Part shown: in pieces, positions 7,018 through 47,749 of the stretch | Layout: each line of letters begins with the position of its first letter | Position numbering within the stretch: position 1 is the first letter of the stretch | Assembly: GCA_036522235.1 (NCBI GenBank) | Contig: DATDGG010000191.1 | Span: forward strand, 5,466 to 69,465 | Reading direction: 5' to 3' | Length of the DNA: 64,000 nucleotides | From: Xanthobacteraceae bacterium | Lineage (GTDB): Bacteria; Pseudomonadota; Alphaproteobacteria; Rhizobiales; Xanthobacteraceae | The notes under the pieces: model-generated | Told to the model about the DNA's origin: nothing | The model's database searches: none | The model's input: the letters and a program-made list of their open reading frames with translations, nothing else | Made by a program: the position numbers and the translations under genes

Positions 7018-7550
7018 CTGATTTTCACCGCCGGGCGATGATCGCTTGTCTCCTCCTCCTGCACGCGCCGGCGCTCGCGGCTGATGCGGGGGCTCCGCCC
7101 GACCCTCCATCCGGCCTGGTCAATCCGCTCGCGGCCTGGTCGCTTGATCGGCTGTCGGCCACCCGCGATCGGCCGCTATTCGCCCCGACCCGTCGCCCGT
7201 CGCCTCCGCCGCCCGCGCCGGTCGCCCGCGTCATCGAGGCGGCGCCGGCGGCACCGCCGCCAAGGCTCACCCTGCTCGGGATCGTGACCGAAGCCGATGG
7301 CGCCCGCGCCATGGTGCGTACCGAAGCGTCCGACAAGGTGGTCCGGGCGCGGCTCGGCGATGAGATCGCGGGATGGAAGGTGACACAGATCGAGCCGCGC
7401 CGCGTCATCCTCTCGCTTGACGAGCGTTCCGTCAGCTTTACGCTGTTTGCTGGCGTGGGAGCAAAGGCCACGCGCGCCCCGTCCGGCCCCCCCGACCCGC
7501 AGGCGCAGAATGTGGCGGAGGAACGGATCGACCGCCGATCCGGCCGTTAG
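7014..7550 (+). CDS. GspC/GspN-like secretin-interacting protein (PilP-like HR domain)
   Basis: ATGA overlap with gspM. Signal/anchor MIACLLLLHAPALAA, a Pro-rich linker, then LTLLGIVTEADGARAMVRT...LGDEIAGWKVTQIEPRRVILS, resembling the GspC HR/PilP fold pattern. Confidence 0.45.
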   Translation: MTDFHRRAMIACLLLLHAPALAADAGAPPDPPSGLVNPLAAWSLDRLSATRDRPLFAPTRRPSPPPPAPVARVIEAAPAAPPPRLTLLGIVTEADGARAMVRTEASDKVVRARLGDEIAGWKVTQIEPRRVILSLDERSVSFTLFAGVGAKATRAPSGPPDPQAQNVAEERIDRRSGR

Positions 7551-7863
7551 GTCCTCAACAACAAAAAGTTTGGAGATCAATCGCCGATCCTTGGATCGAT
7601 CAGCCCGTGTTCTGGTATCCGGGTGCGCGCGGGAAGTTCATGTGGCATTTGCGCAACATAGCTTCGCCACCGCTGTCATGTAACCGTTATCTCCAAGCCA
7701 TAGCTTGCCTTCCGACGCTTCCGGTAGGCGCCCGCCTACAATCAACCGCGCCGCGCGGGGGTTTGCGCGCGTTTGACGGGGGCTCATCGCGCGTACCGAT
7801 CGGCGGGGATCGTCGAGGGGGTGAGGGGGAGTTGTTGGTTTGCGATGCGTCCAATGGCTGCAT

Positions 7864-12824: not shown

Positions 12825-12901
12825 GCGCTCGTAGCTCAGCTGGATAGAGCATCAGACTTCGAATCTGAGGGTCGGGAGTTCGAATCTCTCCGAGCGCGCC
12901 A
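12825..12901 (+). tRNA. tRNA-Arg (anticodon TCG)
   Basis: Hand-folded cloverleaf. Acceptor GCGCTCG/CGAGCGC, D arm GCTC..GAGC, anticodon arm TCAGA-CTTCGAA-TCTGA, T arm GGGAG-TTCGAAT-CTCTC, encoded CCA. Confidence 0.93.
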
Positions 12902-30101: not shown

Positions 30102-30331
30102 AGCCCTCGTTGGCTGCGATCGCAGCTATGACGATTATCGGTTGATCGGCGAGTGGGGAATGGCTATGGGCATGATCGAGTTGATTGTGTCGGTATGCGT
30201 ACTTTCGCAGCCCAATCAATGCCAGGATCAACATCTCAGGTTTGCGTCAAGCCTGTCGGTCCGGCAGTGCGTCAGGAGCGCGCGCGCCCAATGTCGCGGC
30301 GCGAGTATGCGGATAGTTGGGAGGAATTTTG

Positions 30332-31168
30332 ATGCGCGCCGAATTGCGCGCGAAGCGCGATGCCTTTCTGAGCACGATAGGCTCCCGTCCTGTCGTCATG
30401 GGAATTCTGAATTTGACCCCGGACTCGTTCTCCGATGGAGGTCGGTTCCACACTTTCGATGCCGCCATCGCTCACGCAAAGACGATGGTCGCCCAGGGCT
30501 GTGACATCGTCGATATCGGTGGGGAGTCGACACGACCTGCGGCCACTCCTGTGCCTGAAGCGGATGAATTCGGACGCATCGAGCCGATCTTGATGGAATT
30601 GGCGCGCGTTCTCGACGCGCCGCTGTCGATCGATACTTACAAGTCCGCCGTCGCGGCGAGGGCCGTCGAGATCGGCGCGATCCTGGTCAACGACGTTTGG
30701 GGACTGCAAAAGGACCCAAGGATGGCCGACGTGGTCGCGGAAACGGAAGCGGCGGTCGTCATCATGCACAATCGGGCGGAGAGGGACGAGACAGTCGATA
30801 TTTTCGCTGACATTCGGCGCTTCTTCGATCGCTCGCTGGCGCTCGCGGCGAGGGCGGGCATACCGAGAGAATACCTTATCCTCGATCCCGGTGTGGGCTT
30901 CGGCAAGACCGCGCGCCAGAACGTCGAAGCCTTGGCGCGGATCCCCGATCTCAAGGAATACGGGCTGCCAATTCTTGTCGGCGCATCGCGCAAGACTTTT
31001 CTCGGCTCGCTGACCGGCGACGGCATTGAAGGCACTCTCGCCGGAACCCTAGCAGTCAGTCTTGCCGCAGCCGCCGGCGGCGCCTTGCTCTTCCGGATCC
31101 ACGACGTTGCCGAGCACGTCGCGGCTCTCAGGGTGTTCCAGACGATCCGCAACAGTGCCGGACATTGA
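30332..31168 (+). CDS. folP: Dihydropteroate synthase-family protein
   Basis: GGGAGGA SD 7 nt before the ATG at 30332. VMGILNLTPDSFSDGG, DIVDIGGESTRP and GASRKTFLG motifs. Confidence 0.9.
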   Translation: MRAELRAKRDAFLSTIGSRPVVMGILNLTPDSFSDGGRFHTFDAAIAHAKTMVAQGCDIVDIGGESTRPAATPVPEADEFGRIEPILMELARVLDAPLSIDTYKSAVAARAVEIGAILVNDVWGLQKDPRMADVVAETEAAVVIMHNRAERDETVDIFADIRRFFDRSLALAARAGIPREYLILDPGVGFGKTARQNVEALARIPDLKEYGLPILVGASRKTFLGSLTGDGIEGTLAGTLAVSLAAAAGGALLFRIHDVAEHVAALRVFQTIRNSAGH

Positions 31169-33454: not shown

Positions 33455-33632
33455 CGGCTTCCGGCTTCAACGATGTCAGTCTCAGGGCGCGCTGACGTTT
33501 CTTCGGAGGTCAAGCGGGGCGAGAAGAGAAAAATCATCCCTCTCACCCCACTCGGCTGTGACACGCTGCCGGAAGGTTGCCCCATTGCAAGTGTCGGCCT
33601 CTTCGAAAGGCCAGCGACGACTCAAGTCGCGA
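33455..33632 (+). ncRNA. Candidate structured leader element, copy A (upstream of the beta-barrel gene)
   Basis: CTTCCGGC (33458-65) pairs with GCCGGAAG (33568-75), enclosing GTCAG/CTGAC and GGGGCGAGA/TCTCACCCC hairpins. GCGAC-loop-GTCGC at 33614-30. Block-wise alignment to 35527-35722. Confidence 0.45.
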
Positions 33633-33756: not shown

Positions 33757-34665
33757 GTGACAAGAAAAACGCAAGTGACGAACAACTCGATTGTGTTGGC
33801 GACAGCATGCGCGATGTCGCTTTGCGCCACCGCCCCGGTTGCTTTGGCCGGGTCCGTCACACAGCCGGGTGAAACCGTGGGAGTTGCAGCCGGTGCTCCT
33901 CTCCCCGAGGGGCTCTATTTCGTCAACACCGCGGACTGGGGCAACAGGAGCGGCGTCAACACGGCTGTCGGCGTAGATATTCCGGTTGTTGCCTGGTCGA
34001 CTCCTTGGAAGATCTTCGGCGCCCGGGTGCAATTCTTGGCGGCTACGCCGGTGATCGAAGTCGGCGTCCACAATACGACTTATCTGCGCAGCATCTACAA
34101 TCCGCTCGTCTCCGGCCAATTGGCCTGGGACCTCGGAAACGGATGGGGCTTCAGCTATTTGCTTGGGGCCTACTTTGACGTGCATGAAGAGCTCGCCTGG
34201 AGCTCGACCTCGCTCAACCAGCGGTTCGCGCTGAGCTATGCTGGCAACGGCTGGAACCTCACCGCGAACCTCATCTACGGCATACAATTCGACAAGGTCA
34301 CGGGTCGACCGCAAATATCGCCGTGTCCAGTCCCGTTTGGATTGAATGGTTGCAATCCGGACTTCCTGAACGTCGACCTGACGGCGACCAAGAGTTTCGG
34401 CAAGTGGGCGATCGGTCCGGTTGCCTTCGGCTCTACCGATTTGACCACGCCGATTGCCGGCTATCAGAGGCAAAGCCAGTTCGCCTTGGGTGGCCTCGTG
34501 GGATACGACTTCGGTCCGATCACCGTGCAAGGCTACGTTACTTCGGACGTGTACGAGAAAAATTATGGCGGCTTTGACACCCGCGTGTGGGGGCGATTGA
34601 TCATCCCCATCTGGAATCCTGCAGCTCCGGCTCCAGCGCCAAAGCCGCTTTATCGGAAAGGCTGA
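33757..34665 (+). CDS. Outer-membrane beta-barrel protein (phenol-degradation MetA-like / transporter family, tentative)
   Basis: GTG at 33757 is 7 nt after GGAGGA. Signal peptide ...ATACAMSLCATAPVALA. Alternating beta-strand pattern with an aromatic C-terminal strand (RVWGRLIIPIW). Confidence 0.7.
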   Translation: MTRKTQVTNNSIVLATACAMSLCATAPVALAGSVTQPGETVGVAAGAPLPEGLYFVNTADWGNRSGVNTAVGVDIPVVAWSTPWKIFGARVQFLAATPVIEVGVHNTTYLRSIYNPLVSGQLAWDLGNGWGFSYLLGAYFDVHEELAWSSTSLNQRFALSYAGNGWNLTANLIYGIQFDKVTGRPQISPCPVPFGLNGCNPDFLNVDLTATKSFGKWAIGPVAFGSTDLTTPIAGYQRQSQFALGGLVGYDFGPITVQGYVTSDVYEKNYGGFDTRVWGRLIIPIWNPAAPAPAPKPLYRKG

Positions 34666-34687
34666 ATTCAGCCTGCCGACCAAGTCT

Positions 34688-34723
34688 GCCCGGACGCTCC
34701 GGCGTCCGGGCGTCTTTTGGTTT
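34688..34723 (+). terminator. Rho-independent terminator after the beta-barrel gene
   Basis: Perfect 10-bp stem GCCCGGACGC-tccg-GCGTCCGGGC followed by GTCTTTTGGTTT. Confidence 0.8.
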
Positions 34724-34832
34724 CGGCAATCGGCGGCCGAATGTCGGCGAGCAGCGAGCCACTTGAGCGCATTCTTTGAGCGCATATGATGATGGCGCGC
34801 AAGATCGTGTGCTTGTCCGACGTTGTCCTCGG

Positions 34833-35201
34833 ATGTTCGCGATGACGCTCATTGAAGCTGCACGGGGCTTCGGCTTGGTGCTCACGGCGGTGGCCGGTGT
34901 CGCCGCTCCAATCGCCGCGGCCGAGCTCAACGATTATCCCACCGCGGCACGCGCCGACTACGTGTTCGCCTGCATGAAGACAAACGGTGAGACGCGGCAG
35001 GCCTTGGAGCGGTGTTCATGCTCCATCGACGTGATCGCATCAATCCTGCCCTACGACCGCTATGTCGCGGCGGAAACCGTCCTGAGCTTGTCGCAGGTGC
35101 CGGGCCGGTTCGGTGCCATGTTCCAGACGCCCGAACAGGCCAAAATGGCAACCAATGAGCTCCGGCGTGCGCAGGCCGAGGCCGAGGTTCGTTGTTTCTA
35201 G
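34833..35201 (+). CDS. Hypothetical exported Cys-containing protein
   Basis: MFAMTLIEAARGFGLVLTAVAGVAAPIAAA signal-like N-terminus. Conserved-looking ACMKTNG...LERCSCSIDV...EVRCF. No family assigned. Confidence 0.55.
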   Translation: MFAMTLIEAARGFGLVLTAVAGVAAPIAAAELNDYPTAARADYVFACMKTNGETRQALERCSCSIDVIASILPYDRYVAAETVLSLSQVPGRFGAMFQTPEQAKMATNELRRAQAEAEVRCF

Positions 35202-35389
35202 TTTGTCGCGCTCGGATCGTTGCACCTCCGCGCTCGTCGGCACATCATCCCCGCGTCCCGGTGCCGCAAGTAGCCCGAAGCAGAGGTCGGGTGTGACAGA
35301 GTGCCTCACGCCTATTTGAACGTATGCTCGGCTCGGCGGTGCCGGGATGACCCGGGCGCCCGTCCTCGATTCATTGCCCATTAAACGGC

Positions 35390-35415
35390 GAGAGGTATCG
35401 AGAGGTATCGAGGTA
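35390..35415 (+). repeat. Tandem decamer GAGAGGTATC x2 plus partial GAGGTA
   Basis: Read directly: GAGAGGTATC GAGAGGTATC GAGGTA. It lies about 320 nt upstream of the xoxF ATG and about 110 nt upstream of leader copy B. Confidence 0.8.
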
Positions 35416-35526
35416 AAATGGCCACGAAGAGGCTTGCTCCCCCAAGGCAACGTGGAACGCGGCGGGGGCGATTTGACACAAGGTTTCTGTTGCGGTCGGC
35501 GAAAGGCGGACATAGACTTTTGGTTA

Positions 35527-35722
35527 CGGTTTCCGGCTTCAAGAACGTCAGCTCATCGGGAATCCTGACGTTTCTTCGTAGGTTGGGCGGGGCACAAGCG
35601 CAGATGCCCCTCGTGCCTCGCTACGCTGTGACACGCTGCCGGAAACTCTTCCCATCCAAACGGGTGCCGACACGCGGCACTGTGAGTGTTGTCGTGTCGA
35701 TCCACTCGCGACAAAAGTCGCA
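35527..35722 (+). ncRNA. Candidate structured leader element, copy B (xoxF 5' region)
   Basis: TTTCCGGC (35530-37) pairs with GCCGGAAA (35638-45), enclosing (C)GTCAG/CTGAC(G) and GGGGCA/TGCCCC hairpins. GCGAC-aaaa-GTCGC at 35708-21 ends 1 nt before the SD GGGAGG. Confidence 0.45.
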
Positions 35723-35733
35723 GGGAGGTCTTG

Positions 35734-37542
35734 ATGCGCAATTTTCTGCTCACAACCTGCTTCAGCGCCGCCGCAGTGTTCACTGCGAGCGCCGCTCTTG
35801 CCAACGACGAACTGATTCGAATGTCGCAGAACCCGAAAGATTGGGTGATGCCGACAGGAAACTACGCCAACCACCGCTATTCCGAGCTCAAGCAGATCAA
35901 CGCTCAAAATGTCGGGAAGCTGCAGGTGGCATGGACATTCTCGACCGGCGTCCTGCGTGGTCACGAAGGCGGGCCGCTGGTGATCGGCGATGTGATGTAT
36001 GTCCATGGTCCGTTCCCGAACCCGGTCTTCGCACTGGACCTGAACAACGACGGCAAGATCCTCTGGAAGTACGAGCCCAAGCAGGATCCCAATGTCATTC
36101 CCGTCATGTGTTGCGATACGGTCAATCGCGGCCTCGCGTATGCCGACGGGAAGATCTTTCTGCATCAGGCCGATACCTCGCTGATCGCGCTCGATGCCAA
36201 GACCGGAAAGGTCGTCTGGCAGGCCAAGAACGGCGATCCGTCGAAAGGCGAGACCGGCACGTCGGCCCCCGTCGTGATCAAGGACAAAGTCCTGGTCGGC
36301 ATCTCGGGCGGCGAGTTCGGGGTGGCATGTCACGTGACCGCCTACGATCTCAAGACCGGCAAGCAAGTGTGGCGGGGCTCCTCGCAGGGCTCGGACGACC
36401 TGCTGCTCGTTGACCCCGAGAAGACCACCGAACTCGGCAAGCCGATCGGCAAGGATTCGAGCCTGAAGACCTGGCAGGGCGATCAGTGGAAGACCGGCGG
36501 TGGCTGCACCTGGGGCTGGATTTCCTACGATCCCCAGCTGAACCTCATCTACTATGGTTCGGGCAACCCCTCGACCTGGAATCCGAAACAGCGCCCCGGC
36601 GATAACAAGTGGTCGATGACCATTTGGGCGCGCGACCCTGACACCGGAATGGCCAAGTGGGTCTATCAGATGACGCCCCATGACGAATGGGACTTCGACG
36701 GCGTCAATGAGATGATCCTCGCCGACCAGAACATCGGCAACGCCATGCGCAAGACTCTCGTTCACTTCGATCGAAACGGCTTCGCCTATACGCTCGACCG
36801 CACGAACGGAGAGTTGCTGGTAGCCGAGAAATTCGACCCGAAGGTCAACTGGGCCACCAAGATCGACATGGACAAGAATTCGAAGACCTACGGTCGCCCG
36901 CAGGTCGTCTCCCAGTACTCCACCGAGCAGAATGGTCCGGACGTAAACACGAAGGGCATCTGCCCGGCGGCACTCGGCAGCAAAGACGAGCAGCCGGCAG
37001 CCTTTTCACCATCCACCGGTCTGTTCTACGTGCCGACCAACCACGTCTGCATGGACTATGAGCCGTTCCGGGTGAGCTACACGGCGGGCCAGCCCTATGT
37101 CGGGGCGACGCTGTCGATGTATCCGCCTTCCGGTGACACCCACATGGGGAACTTCGTTGCCTGGGATGCGCGCACCGGCAAGGTCGCGTGGTCGAACAAA
37201 GAACAGTTCTCGGTCTGGTCGGGTGCTCTGGCGACCGCCGGCGATGTCGTCTTTTACGGAACGCTCGAAGGCTATCTCAAGGCGGTTGATGCCAAGACCG
37301 GCAAGGAACTCTACAAGTTCAAGACGCCGTCCGGCATCATCGGCAACGTGACGACCTATGAGCACGGCGGCCGGCAATACATCGCGATCCTGTCCGGCGT
37401 CGGCGGCTGGGCTGGTATCGGTCTCGCGGCGGGACTGACGAATCCGACCGACGGCCTGGGTGCTGTCGGTGGCTATGCTGCCCTGCGCAATTACACGTCG
37501 TTGGGCGGCCAGCTCACGGTGTTTGCGCTGCCGGCAAACTGA
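35734..37542 (+). CDS. xoxF: Lanthanide-type PQQ methanol dehydrogenase XoxF
   Basis: Signal peptide [23 protein letters not shown]. Vicinal CC (VMCCDTV). [12 protein letters not shown] carries the extra Asp (codon 36697-36699) that marks XoxF rather than MxaF (DYAG). Eight-blade PQQ propeller throughout. Confidence 0.96.
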
Positions 37543-37628: not shown

Positions 37629-37715
37629 GAGGGTAAGTTGCCGATGTCGGGCGAGCCCCGCATCGGCGCAGTCCCTCGGGAATTCGGCTGCGACGCACGA
37701 TCAACGCAAAAGGAT

Positions 37716-38240
37716 ATGACCGTGAGATGTCTTGTTGTGGCGATTGCGTTGGCCGCAGGGGCGTTTGTCGTCGGCGTCGGCACTGCATCGGCTGATGGCT
37801 CCGGCGATCCGGCAGCTGTCAGAAACGGGGACGGAAAATACTACGACAAAGAAGGCAATCCGACCTACCGGGTGCAGACCGACGGAACGGTGGATTGGTA
37901 CACGTATTCAGGGTTCCGTCGCTATCACTCGGACTGCCATGTTTGTCACGGTCCAGACGGTGAAGGATCGACTTACGCTCCGGCGCTCAGCAATTCGCTG
38001 AAGACGATGCGGTTCTCGGATTTCCTCAGCACCGTGTTCAACGGCCGGAAGAACGTCAACACGGCGCAGGAGAACGTCATGCCATCGTTCGGCAAAAATC
38101 CGAACGTCATTTGTTATATCGACGACATATTCGTCTATCTCCGAGCCCGCGCCAACGGCGTCGTTCCTCGCGGCCGGCCGCAGCAGCACGAGGACAAGCC
38201 CGAATCGGCCACCAAGGCAGAGAACGCCTGCTCGGGCTGA
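37716..38240 (+). CDS. xoxG: Cytochrome c (cL-like) XoxG
   Basis: Signal peptide MTVRCLVVAIALAAGAFVVGVGTASA. Single CHVCH heme motif. Position after xoxF. Confidence 0.88.
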   Translation: MTVRCLVVAIALAAGAFVVGVGTASADGSGDPAAVRNGDGKYYDKEGNPTYRVQTDGTVDWYTYSGFRRYHSDCHVCHGPDGEGSTYAPALSNSLKTMRFSDFLSTVFNGRKNVNTAQENVMPSFGKNPNVICYIDDIFVYLRARANGVVPRGRPQQHEDKPESATKAENACSG

Positions 38241-38283: not shown

Positions 38284-39168
38284 TTGGCGAAATGCGCTAT
38301 GGATTTGTTGCCGTTGAGCTTGTGCATCGTTTGCACGGCAGCCGCAGGCTCGTCTGTGTCTGGAAAGCTGTTCGCGCAGGCGCTCGAGCGCCCGGAGTCG
38401 TCGATCGAGGTTATTGATCCCAAGGTGCTGAGAGTTTGCGCCGACCCGCACAACATGCCTTTTTCGACCGACAAGGGAGAAGGTTTTGAAAACAAGCTCG
38501 TTGAGTTGCTCGCCGAGAAGCTCGGCAAGGGCATTTCATATACCTGGTATCCTCAGGCACCGGGCTTTGTGCGCAATACGCTCGCCGCGCGAAAATGCGA
38601 TCTCATCATGGGTGCCCCGCAAGGGGATGATCTGATCCAGGTCACCAACCCGTATTACCGAACCGCCTATGCGCTGGTGGTCAAGCAGGGCAGCGGTCTG
38701 GAGGGCGTGGAAACCATCGAGGATCCGCGCCTCAAGGGCAGGCGCATCGGTGTCGTGGCCGGGACGCCCCCGGCAAACAACATGGTAACGAACGGCCTCA
38801 TGGCCAACGCGAAACCCTACCCGCTCGTTGTCGACACCCGCGTCGATTCGTCCGCCGCAGCCATGCTGCATGATCTCGCAACGGCGGAGATTGACGCCGG
38901 CATCCTTTGGGGACCGATGGCAGGCTACTACGCACGGCAGGCGAGTTACGCGATGATGGTCGTGCCGCTGGTCAAGGAAACGACCGGTCCGCGCCTTGTG
39001 TACCGCATCGCGATGGGCGTGCGTTTCACCGATCAGGAGTGGAAGCGCTCGCTCAATCGGCAGATTGCGCAGAACCAGCCGGCCATCAACAAGCTCCTGC
39101 TTGGCTTCGGTGTGCCGCTGCTTGACGAGAACGATCGACCGATCACCGGCGATTCCATCAAAAAGTAG
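38284..39168 (+). CDS. xoxJ: MxaJ/XoxJ-like periplasmic binding protein
   Basis: TTG at 38284 is 7 nt after GGAGG. LRVCADPHNMPFS...CDLIMG pattern of quinoprotein-dehydrogenase-associated SBP-3 proteins. Confidence 0.88.
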   Translation: MAKCAMDLLPLSLCIVCTAAAGSSVSGKLFAQALERPESSIEVIDPKVLRVCADPHNMPFSTDKGEGFENKLVELLAEKLGKGISYTWYPQAPGFVRNTLAARKCDLIMGAPQGDDLIQVTNPYYRTAYALVVKQGSGLEGVETIEDPRLKGRRIGVVAGTPPANNMVTNGLMANAKPYPLVVDTRVDSSAAAMLHDLATAEIDAGILWGPMAGYYARQASYAMMVVPLVKETTGPRLVYRIAMGVRFTDQEWKRSLNRQIAQNQPAINKLLLGFGVPLLDENDRPITGDSIKK

Positions 39169-39209: not shown

Positions 39210-39824
39210 TCACTCGAGCGAGTGTTGGATTTCACGGGCCAGCGCAAACAAGCGTTGCTCGACGAGAACCGGCACCTCGCAGACATAGCCGATCGTCTTG
39301 CGCCGCTCCTCGAAGATGCGCGTATCCCACTCGATGCGGCTGGCCATTTCGTCGACTCTACTCTGGTCGCGATCAACCGCATCGTGAAGGTCACGAAGTT
39401 GGAGCGTCTCGGAGCGAATATCGTCGGCGAGTTTTTTTTGCTGTCGAAAAAAGCGCTCGATGCCGTTCATTATCTGGCTACGTTCCTGATTGAGGGAGTT
39501 GAATAGTCCTGCAAAAATGAGCTTCGCCTTTTGCTGCCGCTCCGCTGCGCTGCCGTCGATGAAGTCTGAAATTGCCTTCTCGGCTTCCTTGAGCGGCGTG
39601 CGCCGCGAGGCAAGACGCGCGACGAGATCGCTGATGGCCGGGTCCTGCCGCCAAGCGTTCTCGACGTCATCGATGGATGGACCTGCCCACACGGCGGCGA
39701 CCGAGATTTCCGGCACCTTGATCTGAACGCACGGCCAGTCGGGAAAACGCGGATCGGCGGCCAGGGCGACGCCCCTCAAGGCGACCTCCAAGACAATGGC
39801 CATGAAAAGGTACGAACACCTCAT
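39210..39824 (-). CDS. Hypothetical exported coiled-coil protein, translationally coupled to the ABC permease
   Basis: ATGA overlap with the permease stop (39821-39824). Signal-like MRCSYLFMAIVLEVALRGVALAA. Helical, charged C-terminal half. No family recognised. Confidence 0.6.
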   Translation of the reverse strand: MRCSYLFMAIVLEVALRGVALAADPRFPDWPCVQIKVPEISVAAVWAGPSIDDVENAWRQDPAISDLVARLASRRTPLKEAEKAISDFIDGSAAERQQKAKLIFAGLFNSLNQERSQIMNGIERFFRQQKKLADDIRSETLQLRDLHDAVDRDQSRVDEMASRIEWDTRIFEERRKTIGYVCEVPVLVEQRLFALAREIQHSLE

Positions 39825-40675
39825 ACGCCGCCTCCGGGCTCGCCGCGGCGCGCAAGAAATCCGCGTGACGGATCGTAGGCGAGGATCGCGCCCACCATGA
39901 ACAGCGCCGTGCATCCACCAACAACCGCAAGCGAGACCCAATTGACCTCGCCGTAAAGTGCGAAGCGGACAAGCTCGACCGCGTGGGTGAACGGGTTGAG
40001 TTCGCATATATAATAAAGCAGCGGGCTTCCTTCCCTCACGCGCCACAGCGGATAAAGTGCCGACGAGGCAAAGAACATAGGGAAGATCACAAAATTCATT
40101 GCGCCGGCAAAATTCTCAAGCTGCTTGCTGACTGATGACATGAGCATGCCCAGCGCGCCCAACATTAGACCTGACAGGACTAAAGCCGGCAATGCGGTGA
40201 TATATCCAAGGAGTGGCGGCTCGATTTCCCAGAACCATGCAATGGCGAGGAATGTATAGACCTGCGGTAACCCCACCGCCATGCCGGCCACGAGCTTCGA
40301 CGAAAGGAGAAACCACCGCGGCAATGGACTCACGAGAAGCGTGCGCATGTTGCCCATTTCGCGATCCCAGACCATGGACAACGACGACTGCATTCCGTTG
40401 AATAGCTGGATCAGCAGGATCAATCCGGGCGTGATGTAAACTTCATAGAGCACATAGGTCTCGTAGGGCGGTATGATGGACACGCCGAGCACCTGCCGGA
40501 AACCGGTAGCGAAAATAAAGAGCCACACCAGCGGGCGCACGAGCGCGGCCACAAAGCGTTCGCGTTGGTGCAAGAAGCGCAGACCCTCCCGCCAAACGAT
40601 CCCCTCGAGGCAGATCGCGTATTGGATCGGCGAGAAGCCGGTAAGCCGCGAGGAACTGGCCAGGTCAACGGTCAT
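39821..40675 (-). CDS. ABC-2 type permease (PedC/alcohol-ABC type)
   Basis: 284 aa with about 6 TM segments. ABC-2 layout. ATGA overlap with the ATPase gene. Confidence 0.9.
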   Translation of the reverse strand: MTVDLASSSRLTGFSPIQYAICLEGIVWREGLRFLHQRERFVAALVRPLVWLFIFATGFRQVLGVSIIPPYETYVLYEVYITPGLILLIQLFNGMQSSLSMVWDREMGNMRTLLVSPLPRWFLLSSKLVAGMAVGLPQVYTFLAIAWFWEIEPPLLGYITALPALVLSGLMLGALGMLMSSVSKQLENFAGAMNFVIFPMFFASSALYPLWRVREGSPLLYYICELNPFTHAVELVRFALYGEVNWVSLAVVGGCTALFMVGAILAYDPSRGFLARRGEPGGGV

Positions 40676-41451
40676 GAGGCCTCGGGTGCGGATTGCGATG
40701 GAACTCCTTGCGTCAACCGGGTGAAAGCTGCGCGGAGATCTTGGGCGCCTGCGACCTCCAGCAGGCGTGCGACCGAGCCGTGCTCAAGCACCCGCCCTTG
40801 GTGCAGGACGATGACGTCGTCATCATCCGAGACTTCGTCGATGAGATGCGTGGCCCAGAGCACGGAGACGCCGTCGTCGACGATAAGTCGGCGTACATGG
40901 TCGAGGATATCGGCCCTCGAGTTGATGTCGAGGCCTACCGTTGGCTCGTCGAGCACGAGCAGGCGCGGCCGATGCAACAGCGCCCGGGCAATCTCGACAC
41001 GCCGCATCTGGCCGCCGGACAAGCTACGCACCTTGTCTTGCGCACGGTCCGACAGCGCAACACGCGCGAGCACATCATCGGCGCGCGCGCGGGCTTCCTT
41101 CTTGCCGATGCCGTGCAGAGCTGCATGATACCTCAAGTTCTGGATGACGGAGAGATCGAGGTCGAGCGTGCGCGGCTGGAATACGACGCCGACCATTCGC
41201 AATGCCTCGCTCGACGCACGTCCGACATCGTGACCGAAAATCCGGATGCGGCCGCGCTGGATGGCGTAGAGACGCATCATGAGCGAGAACAACGTGCTTT
41301 TTCCCGCCCCGTTGAGGCCGAGCAGAACCGCGAAGGTCGATGGCGCAATAGAGCAGCTCACATCGTCGAGCGCCTGGCGAGCGCCGTAGAAATGGCTCAC
41401 GCTCTCGATCATGACGGCAGGCGGCGTGACCGCCTTCATTCCGTGCATCAT
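40672..41451 (-). CDS. ABC transporter ATP-binding protein (PQQ-dehydrogenase-associated type)
   Basis: Walker A GLNGAGKST, signature LSGGQMRR, Walker B LLVLDEPT. Start taken at MMHGMK (41451); the ORF is open to 41550. Confidence 0.92.
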   Translation of the reverse strand: MMHGMKAVTPPAVMIESVSHFYGARQALDDVSCSIAPSTFAVLLGLNGAGKSTLFSLMMRLYAIQRGRIRIFGHDVGRASSEALRMVGVVFQPRTLDLDLSVIQNLRYHAALHGIGKKEARARADDVLARVALSDRAQDKVRSLSGGQMRRVEIARALLHRPRLLVLDEPTVGLDINSRADILDHVRRLIVDDGVSVLWATHLIDEVSDDDDVIVLHQGRVLEHGSVARLLEVAGAQDLRAAFTRLTQGVPSQSAPEAS

Positions 41452-41554
41452 GCCGGCCTCCGGTCCTGCCGATGCTCGCCGAGGAACAACCGACAGCCAC
41501 ATTTGCAAACAATCAAATCGCTCCTTCGACCAGCGTGAAGTAGGCGACACGATG

Positions 41555-42523
41555 TCACTGCCGCGAGATCGCGACGCCCCAAGGCAGCTCGCCCACCTGG
41601 ATCGTCTTGACGACTTTGAGGCTGGCGACGTCGATGATAGACACGTCGTTCGAAACGCCGTTGGTCGTCAGAAGCAATTTCTCGTCCGGGGTGAACGCCA
41701 TGTGCCAAACCCGCTGGCCGACCAACAGGTATTTCTGAACCTCATGGGTGGCACCGTTGATGACGGCGACACGATTGGCAGGACCGAGCGCCACAAATCC
41801 GGTCTTGCCGTCCCGGGTGATGCTGATCCCGACGGCCTGGATGGCTTCCTTGCGCAGCCCAGCTATATCGAAGGTGATCTTCTTCGTCACCTGGTGCTTG
41901 ACCGGGTCGATGACGCTGACCGTTCCGCCGACTTCGGACGAAACCCAAAGCTCGGAGCCGTCACGTTTGAACTCCGCGAAACGGGGGCGCGAATCGACAA
42001 GCACATTGGCGACAATCTGGCGCGTTTCGGTGTCGATGAAATGCGCCATGTTGGTCGTCTCGGACGTGTTGACCAGGATCTTGCCGTCCGGACTGATGCC
42101 CATGCCTTCCGGCTCGACTCCAACCTGCACCTCGCCAAGCGGAACGCGTTTCTCCATGTCAATGATCGTGACGGTATTATCGTTCTCGTTGGCGACATAG
42201 AGGATCTTGCCGGTCGGATCCTGGGTGAAGAGCTCGGGATCGGGGCCCGACGGCAGCGTGGCGACGATCTCGTGCGTATTCGTATCGATCATTTGAATCG
42301 TATCGTCATCGCCAACCGCAACCAGGATGAACTTTCCATCCTTTGTCAATTCGATGCCGCGCGGTCTTTGGCCGACCTTGATGGTCTTGACGAGCGCGAG
42401 CTTGTCCACATCGATCACGCTGATCGTGTTGCTCTTCTCGTTCGAAATATAGGCGATGACGGCGCCCGCTTGAGTGCCGAGCAAGATGAAGAGGCCAGTA
42501 CCGAGCAGGGTGGCGCGCCACAT
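41555..42523 (-). CDS. YVTN-type beta-propeller repeat protein (PQQ-catabolism-associated)
   Basis: Signal peptide. Repeated ~40-aa units (YISNEKSNTISVIDV..., YVANENDNTVTIIDM..., LTTNGVSNDVSIIDV...). Confidence 0.9.
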   Translation of the reverse strand: MWRATLLGTGLFILLGTQAGAVIAYISNEKSNTISVIDVDKLALVKTIKVGQRPRGIELTKDGKFILVAVGDDDTIQMIDTNTHEIVATLPSGPDPELFTQDPTGKILYVANENDNTVTIIDMEKRVPLGEVQVGVEPEGMGISPDGKILVNTSETTNMAHFIDTETRQIVANVLVDSRPRFAEFKRDGSELWVSSEVGGTVSVIDPVKHQVTKKITFDIAGLRKEAIQAVGISITRDGKTGFVALGPANRVAVINGATHEVQKYLLVGQRVWHMAFTPDEKLLLTTNGVSNDVSIIDVASLKVVKTIQVGELPWGVAISRQ

Positions 42524-42544
42524 TCTTGTCTTCCCCGTGGTCGG

Positions 42545-43723
42545 TTATTTGAGCTTGCACTTGCTCTCGGGCCGGTCGAATCCCAGCGTGTCCAGCTCTG
42601 ATACCTGATGCAGAAATCCTTCCTGTGGCGACACCGAAACGATCATCCTGCCGTCGGTCAGAAGGATGGGTTGGCGAAGTTGAAGATTCCAGTCTCGTAG
42701 CGTCAACCGCTGGCCTTTGAATGCGGCCAATGCGAATTCGGGGCCTTTGAGGAATTCGAGCATGACCTTTGGATCGGCCGAACCGGTTCGGGACGTGCTC
42801 TCGCCGATCATGCGCACCGCCGACCACGCCTGCATGTCGCGCGCGCTCATGCGCCGCGAGAACATTTTGACGAACCGGTCCTGCAGCTGCACCGCTCCCC
42901 ACTGGTCGTGAGAGGGATCCCAGCTGGTCGGGACCAGGCCCGCGGACCCGGCGACCGGTCTCGCATCCCAGGTCCGGTACGGCAGATAGGCCGCGAAGAC
43001 CTCATTCTCGTCCGCCGCCACCAGGACATCGTAGGCGGCTCCGACTTGCGTGAACACCGGCAGTTGGCGTTGAATCTGGACGACGCCGCTGTCGGTCCTG
43101 CGCGCCCCGCCGGTATCCTCGAAGACTTTCTCCTGAACAATTCGGGCCCCGAACCGCTTGGCTGCCCGTCGCAGCGCATCGGCATAGAGCCGGTCCTCGG
43201 CATGGGAGCCGACGATCAGCAGCCATCTGCGCCACTGTTTCCAGACCAGGTACTGTGCCAGTCCGTCGGCAAGCATCGATCGTGTTGGAGCGGTATGAAT
43301 CACGTTGGCACGGCAGTCCTCTTCGCGCAATCGATCGTCGATAGCGCCGACATTGAAGAAGAGGAGACCGCGCGGCGCCCCGGCATCGGCGGCCTTGAGG
43401 AGCGCGTCCGCCGGAAGATCGGCGATCACCAGCGAGGAGTCGCGCTCCGCCAATGCAATGCCCGCGGCTGCCGCATCGTCGGCTTCGGCGAGCCGTCGAT
43501 CCTCCAGCGAGAATTCCTGATTCAGGAACTTGCCGGTCGTGTTGTTGTCGTTGATTGCAAGCTGCGCGCCGGCGAGCCCGTCGTTTGCTGCCGGTATCTG
43601 GATCAGCGAGAGAGCGAGCTTCGGTTCCCAGTGCCGAAGATAGCCGACCCTGATTTCGGCAGCATCGGCTGAGGCTGATGTCCAGGCCAGGAGTATGATT
43701 CCGGCTGACAGGACGCGCATCAA
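42545..43723 (-). CDS. Periplasmic substrate-binding protein (LivJ-like, PQQ-dehydrogenase-system type)
   Basis: Signal peptide MMRVLSAGIILLAWTSASA. Type-I SBP fold pattern. First gene of the operon. Confidence 0.88.
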   Translation of the reverse strand: MMRVLSAGIILLAWTSASADAAEIRVGYLRHWEPKLALSLIQIPAANDGLAGAQLAINDNNTTGKFLNQEFSLEDRRLAEADDAAAAGIALAERDSSLVIADLPADALLKAADAGAPRGLLFFNVGAIDDRLREEDCRANVIHTAPTRSMLADGLAQYLVWKQWRRWLLIVGSHAEDRLYADALRRAAKRFGARIVQEKVFEDTGGARRTDSGVVQIQRQLPVFTQVGAAYDVLVAADENEVFAAYLPYRTWDARPVAGSAGLVPTSWDPSHDQWGAVQLQDRFVKMFSRRMSARDMQAWSAVRMIGESTSRTGSADPKVMLEFLKGPEFALAAFKGQRLTLRDWNLQLRQPILLTDGRMIVSVSPQEGFLHQVSELDTLGFDRPESKCKLK

Positions 43724-43921: not shown

Positions 43922-43941
43922 GCAGGTATTGTACTACCTGC
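43922..43941 (+). promoter_or_regulatory. Perfect 7-6-7 palindrome upstream of the fusion gene
   Basis: GCAGGTA-ttgtac-TACCTGC, 21-40 nt upstream of the ATG at 43962. Confidence 0.35.
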
Positions 43942-43961
43942 ACGGGTTGCGGAGCGCCACG

Positions 43962-45782
43962 ATGACCTTGTTGCTTGCGAGCGTGAGCAGCGTCGACGAG
44001 GCTGCGCTCGTCTGCGCTTGCGGCGCCGACGTGATCGACCTGAAGGATGCTTCGAAGGGTGCATTTGGAGCGGTTGCGCCCGACGTGCTGCGCGCAACTG
44101 TCGCAGCTGTTGGCGGCAGACGGCCTGTGAGCGCGGTCGCCGGCAGTCTCTCGATGGACCCGGACGTGATTGTAGCGGCAGTCGAAAGTGCGGCTCAGGC
44201 GGAGGTCGATTACGTCAAAGTCGGATTGTTTCCCGGACCGAGACAAAAGGAATGCATCCGTGCGCTGTCCTCACCGGCGCGCAAGACGAAAATCATCGGC
44301 GTAATGTTCGCCGACGGCGGGACCGACCTGACCCTGGTGCCGGTCATGGCCGAGTCCGGCTTCGCCGGGGCGATGCTGGACACCGCCGACAAAAGCAGCG
44401 GCCGGCTGCTCGACCACATTGATATCGCAGCGCTGCGGGACTTCGTCGGGCTGTGTCGGGAGCGCCGGCTGATGGTGGGTCTCGCAGGCTCATTGGAGGC
44501 GCCCGATGTTCCACGGCTGCTCTTGCTGGAACCCGACGTGCTCGGCTTCCGCGGTGCACTTTGCGTCAGGCACGACCGAACTCTTCGGATCGATCCCGAG
44601 TCGATCAGGATCATTCGTGAACTGATACCTTTCGATCCGCGCAGTGCCGCCAGGGAAGACCCGGGCGTGATGAAGGTGGATTACCGGCTTCTGGCGGCGA
44701 GGGGATATTCAGCCGATCCAAGCAAGGATGACGCCGCGACGGACCACATTATCGTCCGCGATTTCGTGCTGCGTGCTCGCGTCGGCGCTTATGCCAGTGA
44801 GCGCGAGAAGCCGCAGAATGTTCGGTTCAATGTTGACGTCAAGGTGCGCCGCACTGGCCATTCGGTCGAAGGCATGCGAGACGTGTTCTCGTACGATGTC
44901 ATCACCGACGGCATCAGGATCATCGTCACGCACGAGCATATCGTGTTTCTCGAGACGCTCGCCGAACGCGTTGCGATGTCGGTGCTTGCTCATCCGCGGG
45001 CCGTCAGTGTGATGGTGCGTGTCGAGAAGCTCGACGTTGGGTCGGGTGGCGTCGGCGTCGAAATCGTGCGGGCACGGCCGACTGATGTCGCAAAGATCCA
45101 GCATCTTTATCCTGCCGCGGCGAGACCGACGCAAACAAAAGCCGCTGAGCCGATGCACGAGCTGATTGGTCTGACAGTGGTCAAGCTCGGCGGAAGCCAC
45201 GCCTTCTCGGCGCATCTGAAGGACTGGATCGACGCGATCGCTCGTTGCGCAGGTCGCGTCGTTGTAGCGCCCGGCGGCGGCCCCTTTGCCGATGCAGTGC
45301 GGGAAGTGCAGCGGAAAATGGGACTTGATGATCGTGCGGCACACCACATGGCGCTGCTCGCCATGGATCAATATTGCTGCGCGCTCGCGAGTCTCGGACG
45401 GAGGCTCACTAAGGCGGCGTCTGCAACCGCCATCCGTCGCGTGCTGCTCGATGGCGGGGTGCCGGTCTGGTCGGCATCCAGAATGGTGCTGGGTGCAAAG
45501 GATATTCCATGGTCTTGGGACGTGACGAGTGACAGCCTTGCAGCTTGGCTCGCTGGCAGGATCGGCGCCAAACGCGTGCTGCTGGTCAAGCATGTGGAGC
45601 CGTCGGCTGCACTTGTCCACGCGAAGGATCTTGTCGCGCAAGGTATCGTTGATCCCGCGTTCCCGCGCTTCCTTGGCGAAAGCGGCGCCGAAGCCTTCAT
45701 TGCCGGAACGGCCGAGCATGCGGCGGCGGCCGTTGCCATGAGCAATGGCGGGATGGTTGGCGCTCGGATCGACTTGCGTTAA
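43962..45782 (+). CDS. Three-domain fusion: MfnB-like (5-formylfuran-3-yl)methyl phosphate synthase + dihydroneopterin aldolase (FolB) + amino-acid-kinase-family domain
   Basis: One uninterrupted frame. MTLLLASVSSVDEAAL..ADVIDLKDASKGAFGA (DUF556/MfnB). DHIIVRDFVLRARVGAYASEREKPQNVRFNVDV (FolB). LTVVKLGGSHAF...VVAPGGGPFAD (AA-kinase fold). Confidence 0.85.
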   Translation: MTLLLASVSSVDEAALVCACGADVIDLKDASKGAFGAVAPDVLRATVAAVGGRRPVSAVAGSLSMDPDVIVAAVESAAQAEVDYVKVGLFPGPRQKECIRALSSPARKTKIIGVMFADGGTDLTLVPVMAESGFAGAMLDTADKSSGRLLDHIDIAALRDFVGLCRERRLMVGLAGSLEAPDVPRLLLLEPDVLGFRGALCVRHDRTLRIDPESIRIIRELIPFDPRSAAREDPGVMKVDYRLLAARGYSADPSKDDAATDHIIVRDFVLRARVGAYASEREKPQNVRFNVDVKVRRTGHSVEGMRDVFSYDVITDGIRIIVTHEHIVFLETLAERVAMSVLAHPRAVSVMVRVEKLDVGSGGVGVEIVRARPTDVAKIQHLYPAAARPTQTKAAEPMHELIGLTVVKLGGSHAFSAHLKDWIDAIARCAGRVVVAPGGGPFADAVREVQRKMGLDDRAAHHMALLAMDQYCCALASLGRRLTKAASATAIRRVLLDGGVPVWSASRMVLGAKDIPWSWDVTSDSLAAWLAGRIGAKRVLLVKHVEPSAALVHAKDLVAQGIVDPAFPRFLGESGAEAFIAGTAEHAAAAVAMSNGGMVGARIDLR

Positions 45783-45807
45783 CCGCGTGCGAGTGCGTTA
45801 GGTCACC

Positions 45808-46359
45808 ATGGTCAAAGTCAAGACGCCGCGCTGGGGCTGGGCGCTCACCGGATCCGGGCATTTCTTCAAGGAATGCCTGGCCATGATTGGTCAACTCGAA
45901 GACACTGATCTGTTTGTCAGCAGAGCGGCTGCGGAGGTCGTCCGCATGTACAAGCAGGACCTTGTCTTGCCCAAATCGGCGCGCGTCTTCCGCGACACGA
46001 CCGCGAGCTCCCCGCCGGTGGGAAACTTCTACTACGGGGTTTATCACACGCTCGTTCTTGCGCCGGCGACGTCGAATACGGTGGCCAAATGCGTCTACGG
46101 CATTTCCGATAGTCTTGCGACCAATATGTTCGCGCAGGCAGGCAAGTGCCGCGTTCCCGCGATCGTTTTCGCTTGCGATACCGCGCCGGAGCTCGAAACC
46201 GAGGCGCCGAAAGGCACCGTCATGGTCTATCCGCGGCGCATCGATCTCGAGAATACCGAGCGACTGAAATCCTTCGATGAAACGGACGTCGTCGAATCCC
46301 TGACGGAACTCGAGCAGGCTTTGGCGCGCCGCAAGCGCGAGCTCGCAGTGCATGGTTGA
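45808..46359 (+). CDS. Archaeoflavoprotein AfpA-like flavoprotein (DmrB-type dihydromethanopterin reductase candidate)
   Basis: WALTGSGHFFKEC... and LAPATSNTVAKCVYGISDSLATNMF flavoprotein motifs. Cluster context. Confidence 0.75.
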   Translation: MVKVKTPRWGWALTGSGHFFKECLAMIGQLEDTDLFVSRAAAEVVRMYKQDLVLPKSARVFRDTTASSPPVGNFYYGVYHTLVLAPATSNTVAKCVYGISDSLATNMFAQAGKCRVPAIVFACDTAPELETEAPKGTVMVYPRRIDLENTERLKSFDETDVVESLTELEQALARRKRELAVHG

Positions 46360-47749
46360 GCGCATCCTCTTTCTCACCGGTCATCTCGCACGACCGCGGT
46401 TGGAGAAGGTTCTTGCAAGCCTTCACGACACGGAGTTCGAATGGTCGGTCCTTGATGTCGGCGTCAATGTTGCCGCCCTCATGACCGAGGCGATTGTCTC
46501 GCGCCGGCTGCCGCGCCCGATGAATGCCGGCCGTATCATGGTTCCAGGTCGCTGCCGCGCCGATCTCGATCGATTAACTGCCGAATTCGGCATCCGATTT
46601 GAGCGCGGCCCCGATGAGTTGAAGGACTTGCCGGCCTACTTCGGAAAGCGTGGCCGCGGCTTGGATCTTTCGCGTCAGGACATGCGCATCTTCGCCGAGA
46701 TCGTCGATGCTTCGGCACTGAGCGTCGATGCGATCCTTGCCCGCGCCGCAGCCATGCGCGAGGCGGGCGCCGACGTCATCGATCTCGGATGTCTGCCGGA
46801 TACCCCGTTCCCACATCTCGAAGACGCTGTGCGCGAGCTGAAAGCCGTCGGTCTTGGTGTCAGCGTCGACTCGGCCGCAACCGACGAACTACGCCGCGGG
46901 GGCAGGGCAGGGGCCGCCTTCCTGCTGAGTCTCACCGAAAATACACTCGACATCGCGAGCGAGACGGGCGCAACCCCGGTGCTCATTCCGGCAAGCCACG
47001 GCGATGTATCGTCGCTGCTGCGCGCGGCTGAGGCCGCGGACAGGCGGGGCATCTGCTCGATCCTTGATCCGGTTCTTGATCCTATCCATTTCGGCTTGAT
47101 CGCCTCGCTGGAACGCTACGCGCATGTCCGCCACAGGCTGCCGGACGCGGACATTCTCATGGGAACCGGCAATCTGACGGAACTCACCGACGCCGATTCC
47201 GGAGGCATAACCGCGACGCTCCTGGGCATCTGTTCGGAGCTTCATATCCGTAACGTTCTCGTCGTTCAAGTAAGCCCGCACACGCGCCGCACGATCCAGG
47301 AGCACGATGCGGCACGACGCATGATGTTTGTCGCTCGCGAAGACAGCAGTCTTCCAAAGGACTACGGTGGCGCGCTGGTGCAGCTGCACGATCGGATGCC
47401 GTTTCCAAATACGCCGCAGGAGATTGCCGAGCTCGCTACACAAGTCAAAGATGCCAATTTCCGCATCGAGATAGCCGATGATGGAATCCACGTTTATAGC
47501 CGCAACGGTTATCACCTTGCGCAGGATGCGCTCTCGCTTTTCTCCAGGCTTGGAATCGGTGACGACGCGGCCCATGCCTTCTATCTCGGGACCGAACTGA
47601 TGAAGGCGGAGATCGCGTGGCGACTTGGTAAGCGCTACGTTCAGGATGAGCCGCTCGATTGGGGTTGCGCTGTCGACCGGTTGGCCGAAGACCTGACGCG
47701 TCTGCGTGAGGCAGGACCCACGTTGCGCGGTCGGGCGTCCGAGGGCTGA
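46352..47749 (+). CDS. Dihydropteroate synthase-related (pterin-binding) protein of H4MPT biosynthesis
   Basis: 465 aa. N-terminal extra domain plus a pterin-binding barrel (ADVIDLGCLPDTPFPHLEDAV...SVDSAATDEL). Overlaps the previous gene by 8 nt. Confidence 0.8.
   Translation: MVERILFLTGHLARPRLEKVLASLHDTEFEWSVLDVGVNVAALMTEAIVSRRLPRPMNAGRIMVPGRCRADLDRLTAEFGIRFERGPDELKDLPAYFGKRGRGLDLSRQDMRIFAEIVDASALSVDAILARAAAMREAGADVIDLGCLPDTPFPHLEDAVRELKAVGLGVSVDSAATDELRRGGRAGAAFLLSLTENTLDIASETGATPVLIPASHGDVSSLLRAAEAADRRGICSILDPVLDPIHFGLIASLERYAHVRHRLPDADILMGTGNLTELTDADSGGITATLLGICSELHIRNVLVVQVSPHTRRTIQEHDAARRMMFVAREDSSLPKDYGGALVQLHDRMPFPNTPQEIAELATQVKDANFRIEIADDGIHVYSRNGYHLAQDALSLFSRLGIGDDAAHAFYLGTELMKAEIAWRLGKRYVQDEPLDWGCAVDRLAEDLTRLREAGPTLRGRASEG

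Follow-up and report, generated by a model that had tools for sequence, protein, structure and literature searches.

A conserved, structured leader RNA ahead of the lanthanide-dependent methanol dehydrogenase gene xoxF5: a candidate new family of cis-regulatory RNA in Hyphomicrobiales

Introduction

Does the messenger of a lanthanide-dependent methanol dehydrogenase carry a regulatory RNA in its own leader? The question was raised by a 64,000-nt stretch of DNA (the window) from a contig of an uncultured Xanthobacteraceae bacterium, in which two blocks of untranslated DNA, one ahead of the methanol dehydrogenase gene xoxF5 and one ahead of a gene for an outer-membrane beta-barrel protein, align with each other. 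A sequence-only reading of the window had proposed that these blocks are a three-way-junction cis-regulatory RNA and a second, compensated copy of it. No methanol dehydrogenase is more widespread in soils and the rhizosphere than XoxF5, which is also the founding example of lanthanide biochemistry; its control is only partly understood and, to our knowledge, the known control is exerted by proteins only.

The proposal was followed up computationally and was borne out, as all three helices show compensatory changes in 57 and in 71 distinct sequences. The element is very probably a real, conserved and structured cis-regulatory RNA. For the observations as a whole, the best explanation, which we hold to be fairly probable, is an undescribed family of structured cis-regulatory leader RNAs, most likely riboswitches, with a presumptive position at the 5' end of the transcript and a presumptive switch.

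Two copies of the element in the window

The copy in the xoxF leader (copy B, 35527-35656, + strand) has an aptamer-like core formed by a three-way junction and a pseudoknot, and scored 136.8 bits (E 1e-32) with the covariance model R1 described below. The copy in the leader of the barrel gene (copy A, 33455-33586, +) scored 94.1 bits. Both are one element of about 125-130 nt in the same orientation, and the R1 scan gave no third copy within the 64-kb window.

The outer helix P1 was read where it had been claimed, with CTTCCGGC (33458-65) pairing with GCCGGAAG (33568-75) in copy A and TTTCCGGC (35530-37) with GCCGGAAA (35638-45) in copy B, whose 5' strand GGTTTCCGGC (35528-35537, +) pairs with GCCGGAAACT (35638-35647). 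Helix P2 of copy B is a hairpin at 35543-35573 (+), in which 35543-51 pairs with 35565-73 around a 13-nt loop (L2, 35552-64) with an invariant GGGA. The stem GTCAG/CTGAC was confirmed in both copies, as were the loops of 12 and 13 nt and the closing pair, U.G in one and C-G in the other. Helix P3 of copy B is an interrupted hairpin (35581-35622, +), variable in length and sequence, with the segments GGC 35586-88/GCC 35615-17 and GGGGCA 35589-94/TGCCCC 35605-10; it is built from different sequence in copy A, GGGGCGAGA/TCTCACCCC (33516-24/33541-49, +), where P2 is formed by 33471-79/33492-500 (+). The joints are near-identical: the blocks TTCCGGCTTCAA, CTGACGTTTCTTCG and GCTGTGACACGCTGCCGGAA are the same in both copies, while the intervening sequence differs and its pairing is kept. 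The most conserved single-stranded block is the J3/1 junction of copy B, ACGCTGTGACACGCT (35623-35637, +; block GUGACACGCUG). Single-sequence folding gave z-scores of -0.2 for copy A, which is uninformative, and -3.8 for copy B with its expression platform.

Every detail of the sequence-only reading that was checked is present at the positions it gave. That reading had overlooked the pseudoknot, the relation of the element to the Shine-Dalgarno (SD) sequence and the conserved promoter directly upstream.

Related elements and covariation of the helices

Approximately 190 further copies were gathered from genomes and metagenomes by four routes. The first consisted of the loci of close XoxF homologues, where the element lies about 200 nt before the ATG; locus L001 also has a second copy before a barrel gene. 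The second was a scan with the J3 block, one genome per species, which returned 69 loci with 58 true elements, mostly from Pseudolabrys and other Xanthobacteraceae metagenome-assembled genomes (MAGs), plus the isolate Astrobacterium formosum; the remaining loci were chance matches in unrelated phyla. The third, a metagenome scan anchored on the opposite end of the element (J1...GACAC...CCGGAA), returned at least 120 loci. The fourth was the covariance model R1, made from 57 distinct sequences, which matched 117 elements in the 120 metagenome loci listed, at 56-133 bits. Given the scores of the two window copies, the lack of any other match in the window and the matches to non-training sequences, the resemblance is beyond chance.

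Element lengths ranged between about 123 and 142 nt, with differences not divisible by three, and two of the reading frames contain stop codons; the element is therefore not peptide-coding, as had been stated before, and a leader-peptide attenuator was rejected on the same grounds.

From the raw MAFFT alignment RNAalifold predicted P2 and P1, the latter shifted, without P3 and the pseudoknot, and for this reason the structure was drawn by hand. It was tested by counting pairs. In a plain MAFFT alignment of 57 distinct sequences, not fitted to any structure, 91.7% of the cells were paired, versus 42-55% when the 3' partners were slid by 1-3 columns; 16 pairs were changed on both sides, and none of 500 shuffles reached the observed values. 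The 71 distinct metagenome sequences, taken among the matches listed and aligned with the covariance model, gave 90% paired cells versus 39-52% after sliding, with double changes in 21 of the 36 pairs (180 cells).

Helix P1 was 94-96% paired across the relatives and its core is nearly fixed; among its compensations are a G-C that became A-U (L028), U-A/C-G/U-G at the basal pairs, and wobble changes, and in the second copy of L193 the helix is rebuilt. The most variable helix was P2, with both-side changes in seven of its nine pairs in the 71-sequence set and the stem variants GTCAG/CTGAC, GCCAG/CTGGC, GTCGG/CCGAC, GTTAC/GTGAC and ACGAG/CTCGT. Helix P3 was 80-89% paired with a loop from about 3 to more than 30 nt, and double changes were present in 10 of its 12 pairs (alignment A6), namely 9/9 in the three inner segments and 1/3 in the basal segment. 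G-C and G-U alternated frequently (e.g. GC:42 and GU:28 at one P1 pair); since G-U pairs are C-A mismatches on the opposite strand, the folded molecule is the + strand RNA.

A leader of another type (P0069 loci; L004:3820-3930, L005 and L006; Xanthobacteraceae MAG DATBHG01) scored only 30 bits. It keeps P1, P2, the pseudoknot (GGCGGGAG/TTCCCGTC) and the SD; its junctions are altered (CACGA for UUCAA, GGGACAC for GUGACAC) and P3 is cut to a short hairpin. It is either a degenerate or a divergent member of the family.

Junctions and pseudoknot

The strands that join P1, P2 and P3 were nearly invariant: UUCAA, UUUCUUCG-A-G and GCUGUGACACGCUG. Each junction was checked in the data set not anchored on it. 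J1/2 (TTCAA) and J2/3 (TTCG) were invariant in the J3-anchored set, and J3/1 was invariant in the J1-anchored set, where the search pattern forced only its GACAC.

The junction is closed by a pseudoknot. In copy B, GGGAA of the P2 loop (35558-35562, +) pairs with TTCCC (35649-35653), just 3' of P1; in copy A, GGGCG (33485-89, +) pairs with TGCCC (33578-82), compensated relative to copy B. The P2 loop typically contains GGGA and the 3' flank of P1 UCCC, and the neighbouring positions covary. Six combinations were observed: GGGAA/TTCCC in most sequences, GGGAT/ATCCC in L010, L031, L036, L038 and L052, GGGAG/CTCCC in L033, GGGCG/TGCCC in copy A of the window, CGGGA/TCCCG in L023, and GGGG/CCCC in L020. 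The pseudoknot helix was 94% paired in both alignments, though it lies outside the structure of the covariance model.

About 35 near-invariant nucleotides are concentrated in this pseudoknot-closed, multi-helix junction. A riboswitch would be expected to have a conserved aptamer, and such a domain was found: 90-92% of cells paired, 16-21 pairs with double changes, 0/500 shuffles reaching the observed values, and invariant junctions. On these features we lean slightly towards a ligand-binding riboswitch, the binding itself being predicted. A structured leader bound by a protein or by a trans-acting small RNA, for example a methylotrophy RNA-binding regulator or an operon product acting in feedback, with the same pseudoknot and anti-SD output, would have the same structure and position. 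Many RNA-binding proteins recognise GGA-containing motifs, of which the P2 loop shows one, and a narrow regulon of xoxF and outer-membrane barrels would fit a dedicated regulator. This possibility is nevertheless somewhat unlikely, as so many near-invariant nucleotides in a pseudoknot-closed junction are the usual signature of a ligand pocket, and no conserved candidate gene for an RNA-binding protein accompanies the element in the loci read.

Associated genes and taxonomic range

Among the matches listed, and counting copies with readable downstream sequence, 155 precede xoxF5, with XoxF identities of 61% to 93% to the window protein. Six precede barrel genes of the Phenol_MetA_deg family (window, L001, L020, L023, L057 and L193), and one (L037) precedes a gene for a 594-aa putative outer-membrane protein without family match. 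Loci carry one copy or two, in a constant orientation relative to the downstream gene, which is invariably of one of these types. The order element, barrel gene, small Cys protein, and further on element and xoxF was found in the window and in L023. In L001, whose genes are the same, a divergent pair of SoxYZ and Lactamase_B intervenes ahead of the second element; the two copies of L193 are separated by 2.6 kb. As this two-copy layout recurs across loci, the copies are old paralogues and not a recent duplication.

The sequence-only reading had named dozens of copies at unrelated loci, without helix covariation, as a sign of a dispersed repeat. What was found is one or two copies per locus, before xoxF5 or outer-membrane barrel genes. 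With two copies in 64 kb, one or two per locus elsewhere and strong covariation, a repeat of the REP, RIME or MITE type (repetitive extragenic palindrome, Rhizobium-specific intergenic mosaic element, miniature inverted-repeat transposable element) was rejected.

The XoxF encoded in L136 matches the Pseudaminobacter salicylatoxidans protein exactly, with Mesorhizobium proteins as its nearest relatives. The element was present before xoxF5 in Mesorhizobium ciceri, M. tamadayense and P. salicylatoxidans, on a Phyllobacterium plasmid and on the Rhizobium gallicum R602 chromid. No match was obtained, with the model filters off, ahead of the xoxF5 genes of Sinorhizobium meliloti pSymB, Sagittula, Paracoccus alcaliphilus, Azoarcus KH32C, Methylosinus C49 and Azospirillum. 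Judged from these sequences, the family is widespread but patchy within Hyphomicrobiales. Two contigs with the element and an xoxF5 of alphaproteobacterial type, L033 and L077, carry the MAG labels Acidobacteriota and Sphingomicrobium; the near-identity of L077 to Xanthobacteraceae loci makes mis-binning likely.

Promoter and probable place in the transcript

A promoter-like site of the xoxF transcript lies at 35490-35518 (+), with the -35 hexamer TTGCGG (35490-95), a 17-nt spacer and the -10 hexamer TAGACT (35513-18), and with a T-rich stretch before it. It was missed by a sigma-70 consensus scan, TTGCGG/TAGACT being below the cut-off, and was found by comparison across loci. More than 50 xoxF copies share a conserved upstream series of T-run, TTGCGG/TTGCGA/TTGCAG, N17 and TAnnnT; the -10 variants (TAGACT, TACAAT, TAAGCT, TAAAAT and others) end 7-8 nt before model position 1, and the same layout is present in M. 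ciceri. In the barrel-gene copies the -35 region is a different one, but the spacing of a -10-like hexamer from the element is unchanged. Two unlike promoters that would yield one common RNA 5' end argue that the conserved unit is the transcript and not an operator.

By this promoter, transcription would start at about 35525-35527, just 5' of P1, and the element is probably the extreme 5' end of both the xoxF-xoxG-xoxJ mRNA and the barrel-gene mRNA. The 5' end of the xoxF mRNA would be expected 1-5 nt before GGUUUCCGG. A start downstream of 35645, which had been set out as the case that would speak against the RNA, does not agree with the conserved promoter, which places the likely start 5' of P1.

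Regulation at the level of DNA, through operator or promoter sites or a dispersed REP/MITE-type repeat, was already disfavoured and is extremely improbable. The inverted repeat TTCCGGC...GCCGGAA and the blocks common to two nearby intergenic regions could be read in this way; on the other hand, compensatory changes keep the pairing over 100 nt, the G-U pairs are strand-specific, the conserved promoter is upstream of the element, and the copies, one or two per locus, stand in one orientation before the same gene types. Operator or promoter DNA bound by a transcription factor was rejected specifically, as the pairing tolerates G-U and not the C-A of the other strand, and the element is downstream of the conserved -10.

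Two further sequences were observed upstream of xoxF promoters. In M. ciceri (L200:2701-2737) a perfect 12-bp inverted repeat, TATTGCACCGCA-N13-TGCGGTGCAATA, lies upstream of the T-rich stretch before the promoter-like site; it could be a transcription-factor operator, by which transcriptional control would be added to the leader RNA. In the window, a tandem repeat GAGAGGTATC GAGAGGTATC GAGGTA is present at 35389-35415 (+), about 75 nt upstream of the -35 hexamer of xoxF.

Shine-Dalgarno sequence and proposed switch

The tail CUUCCC (35648-35653, +) contains the 3' strand of the pseudoknot and is also a candidate anti-SD, complementary to the SD GGGAGG (35723-28) that precedes the xoxF start codon ATG (35734-36; SD to start, 35723-35736, +). 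GGGAGG was found in nearly all xoxF leaders, and so was its complementarity to CUUCCC, though the intervening 60-70 nt are unrelated between clades. In the window this interval (35662-35721, +) contains two platform hairpins in the fold of 35643-35739, one at 35662-35707 and GCGAC/GTCGC at 35708-35721. The latter had been described as a final hairpin present in both copies and ending one base before the SD in the xoxF copy; it does end at 35721, one base before GGGAGG, but it is part of the variable expression platform and lies outside the conserved core. The sequence between tail and SD differs between clades, and a hairpin always fills the space. The distance from the element to the ATG of xoxF leaders was 63-92 nt, mostly 72-84, and over all leaders one aptamer is combined with a variety of expression platforms, with 36-170 nt to the start codon.

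Pairing of tail and SD was part of the minimum-free-energy fold of the window leader (z = -3.8), where it closes a domain around the two platform hairpins. In 53 of 78 diverse leaders, at least four tail:SD pairs were present in the minimum-free-energy fold of the platform alone. Because of the likeness of the P2 loop to the SD, the two compete for one tail, whose partner would be either the P2 loop or, about 70 nt downstream, GGGAGG. A folded aptamer, presumably stabilised by its effector, would hold the anti-SD in the pseudoknot, leaving the SD free and xoxF translated (ON); in the unfolded state the tail would close a long stem with the SD and block initiation. Whether the element works by this translational ON mechanism, with the switching and the polarity deduced from the model, we regard as evenly balanced. 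No U-tract terminator was found in the leader; the single terminator-like call fell on the P2 hairpin, where the U residues of a weak UUUCUU are paired inside P2. An intrinsic terminator was rejected accordingly, there being no GC hairpin with a proper U-tract.

The element could also be constitutive and sense nothing, for instance by protecting the 5' end from RNases or as a fixed enhancer of translation for a very highly expressed periplasmic enzyme. Such a role would agree with P1 at what appears to be the very 5' end, as in 5' stabilising hairpins, and with the very high expression of xoxF, which is among the most highly expressed genes of methylotrophs. It is very unlikely, as a stabiliser needs a terminal hairpin only, and not invariant junctions, a covarying pseudoknot and a tail with two partners.

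Classification of the element

The element did not match any catalogued RNA family. No Rfam 15 match at E<=10 was obtained for the element of the window or for the M. ciceri leader, in agreement with the earlier statement that it belongs to no known family, and no gathering threshold of Rfam 15 was reached, including those of the tetrahydrofolate (THF), S-adenosylmethionine, cyclic di-GMP and metal riboswitches, the self-cleaving ribozymes and the alpha-proteobacterial small RNAs. A known ribozyme was rejected for lack of an Rfam match. The literature searched (xoxF riboswitch, leader and post-transcriptional control) contained unrelated mentions of riboswitches only, and thus, as previously supposed, no cis RNA assigned to xoxF.

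Several observations weigh against a switching riboswitch of general importance. When the platform interior was shuffled, tail and SD still paired in 55% of cases versus 68% observed; the gain is weak, the platform architecture therefore adds little, and it was not counted as evidence. The complementarity of tail and SD could be a by-product, because the pseudoknot needs GGGA/UCCC and SDs are G-rich. Tails with ATCCC pair with the SD through only 4 bp, and the tail of copy A, GUUGCCCC, is complementary not to the SD of the barrel gene but to 33705-15; no common switching helix could be settled for the platforms of the barrel-gene copies. We infer the start of transcription, as well as the switching and its ON polarity. 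The xoxF5 loci of Sinorhizobium, Paracoccus, Azospirillum and Methylosinus gave no model match, although growth of Sinorhizobium on methanol with lanthanides is documented (PMC12628762); the element is therefore no general component of control by lanthanides. In Bradyrhizobium, whose growth is lanthanide-dependent, xoxF mRNA rises 59-fold on methanol, in a report that does not mention a leader RNA (PMC12628762), which shows clearly that transcriptional control exists in relatives.

Gene content of the locus

The gene downstream of copy B is xoxF5 (35734-37542, +), encoding a lanthanide-dependent methanol dehydrogenase with pyrroloquinoline quinone (PQQ) as cofactor (Pfam PQQ and TIGR03075). 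Its product is 100% identical to HEY6256151.1, the XoxF5 of a Xanthobacteraceae MAG. It is followed by xoxG (37638-38240, +; TIGR03874) and xoxJ (38284-39168, +; TIGR03871). Downstream of copy A is the barrel gene (33757-34665, +; Phenol_MetA_deg, Pfam PF13557, E 6e-20), with a GTG start at 33757 and the SD GGAGGA at 33744-49. Directly 3' of it a 141-aa protein with four Cys and without Pfam or NCBIfam match is encoded (34776-35201, +); the interval between the two genes contains a terminator-like hairpin (34687-34712) and a promoter-like site (34763-34790). In L001-L009, L023 and the Mesorhizobium loci, homologues of this protein, with 114-123 aa, are encoded next to the xoxF cluster.

On the - strand 3' of xoxFGJ (39210-43723) are an unassigned open reading frame (ORF), an ABC-2 permease, an ABC ATPase, a YVTN/beta-propeller protein and a periplasmic binding protein. 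This set may resemble the PedA1A2BC transporter, which Pseudomonas putida reportedly requires for growth that depends on lanthanides. Genes like those of tetrahydromethanopterin (H4MPT) biosynthesis are present at 43929-47749 (+) and 30317-31168 (+); they encode a 617-aa fusion of 4-(hydroxymethyl)-2-furancarboxaldehyde-phosphate synthase, FolB and an amino-acid kinase domain, a flavoprotein, a DUF6513 plus pterin-binding protein, and a separate pterin-binding enzyme. Because of these genes near xoxF, the window was taken to be part of a methylotrophy island. The sole Rfam gathering-level match in the window was a tRNA gene at 12825-12898 (+).

In the Mesorhizobium and Pseudaminobacter loci L199-L203, xoxFGJ and a 186-aa gene are followed at about 7190-7900 by a 31-aa ORF and a Lactamase_B_2 protein. 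The pair looks like pqqA-pqqB, in which case the PQQ biosynthesis operon abuts the xoxF operon there; no second copy of the element was found before this pair in L199-L203.

Possible effectors and significance

The context of the element is methylotrophy: the ABC-2 transporter, YVTN propeller and binding protein come after xoxFGJ, H4MPT-biosynthesis-like genes are nearby, and related loci carry genes of glutathione-dependent formaldehyde metabolism and pqq genes. Candidate effectors would be a signal of cofactor supply (a cytoplasmic light lanthanide or PQQ) or a one-carbon intermediate. A more specific reading, that the RNA is itself the cofactor sensor, a riboswitch for a light lanthanide (La/Ce/Nd) or PQQ that turns on translation of XoxF5 and an outer-membrane channel once the cofactor is in the cytoplasm, is unlikely. 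If true, this would be the first lanthanide- (or PQQ-) responsive RNA and a missing cytoplasmic sensor of the 'lanthanide switch' in Hyphomicrobiales with XoxF only.

An aptamer-like RNA that opens the xoxF mRNA would offer a testable handle on post-transcriptional control, and its hosts include cultured and genetically tractable bacteria (Mesorhizobium ciceri, Rhizobium gallicum, Phyllobacterium and Pseudaminobacter). If bound by a ligand, it would be a new riboswitch class and, according to which ligand it binds, a possible biosensor scaffold for rare-earth elements, PQQ or one-carbon metabolites. If dependent on a protein, it would still define a small regulon joining methanol oxidation to specific outer-membrane channels.

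Comparison with known systems

The 'lanthanide switch' of xoxF/mxaF in Methylobacterium/Methylorubrum and methanotrophs operates through the two-component systems MxbDM, MxcQE and MxaY/MxaB. These systems share with the element its target gene and the physiological question; they differ from it in being protein-based and transcriptional. Precedents for RNAs that read the supply of a cofactor or ion are the molybdenum cofactor RNA (Moco, RF01055), the control of metE by adenosylcobalamin, the Mn2+ yybP-ykoY RNA, the Mg2+ M-box and the Li+/Na+ classes; no member of this group is known to bind a lanthanide or PQQ, and none matches the element in sequence.

In architecture, the element is closest to the THF-I riboswitch (RF01831) and other three-way-junction aptamers closed by a long-range pseudoknot, with which it shares its probable place in the 5' untranslated region and a hairpin-loop pseudoknot that locks the junction; conserved junction nucleotides with covarying helices are a further likeness to THF-I. 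It differs from THF-I in showing no sequence or covariance-model similarity (no Rfam match at E<=10), in having the tail 3' of P1 as the partner of its pseudoknot, and in its genes, which are those of methanol oxidation and outer-membrane channels and not of folate. In logic, it would be similar to the translational ON adenine riboswitch add of Vibrio vulnificus, where the folded aptamer likewise withholds the strand that sequesters the SD. The add aptamer is closed by a loop-loop kissing contact and has its switching strand in P1, whereas the element has a pseudoknot tail, an SD about 70 nt away and a polarity that we infer. The element belongs to neither THF-I nor add and makes a strong candidate for an orphan, riboswitch-like leader family that would be new within a familiar kind of system.

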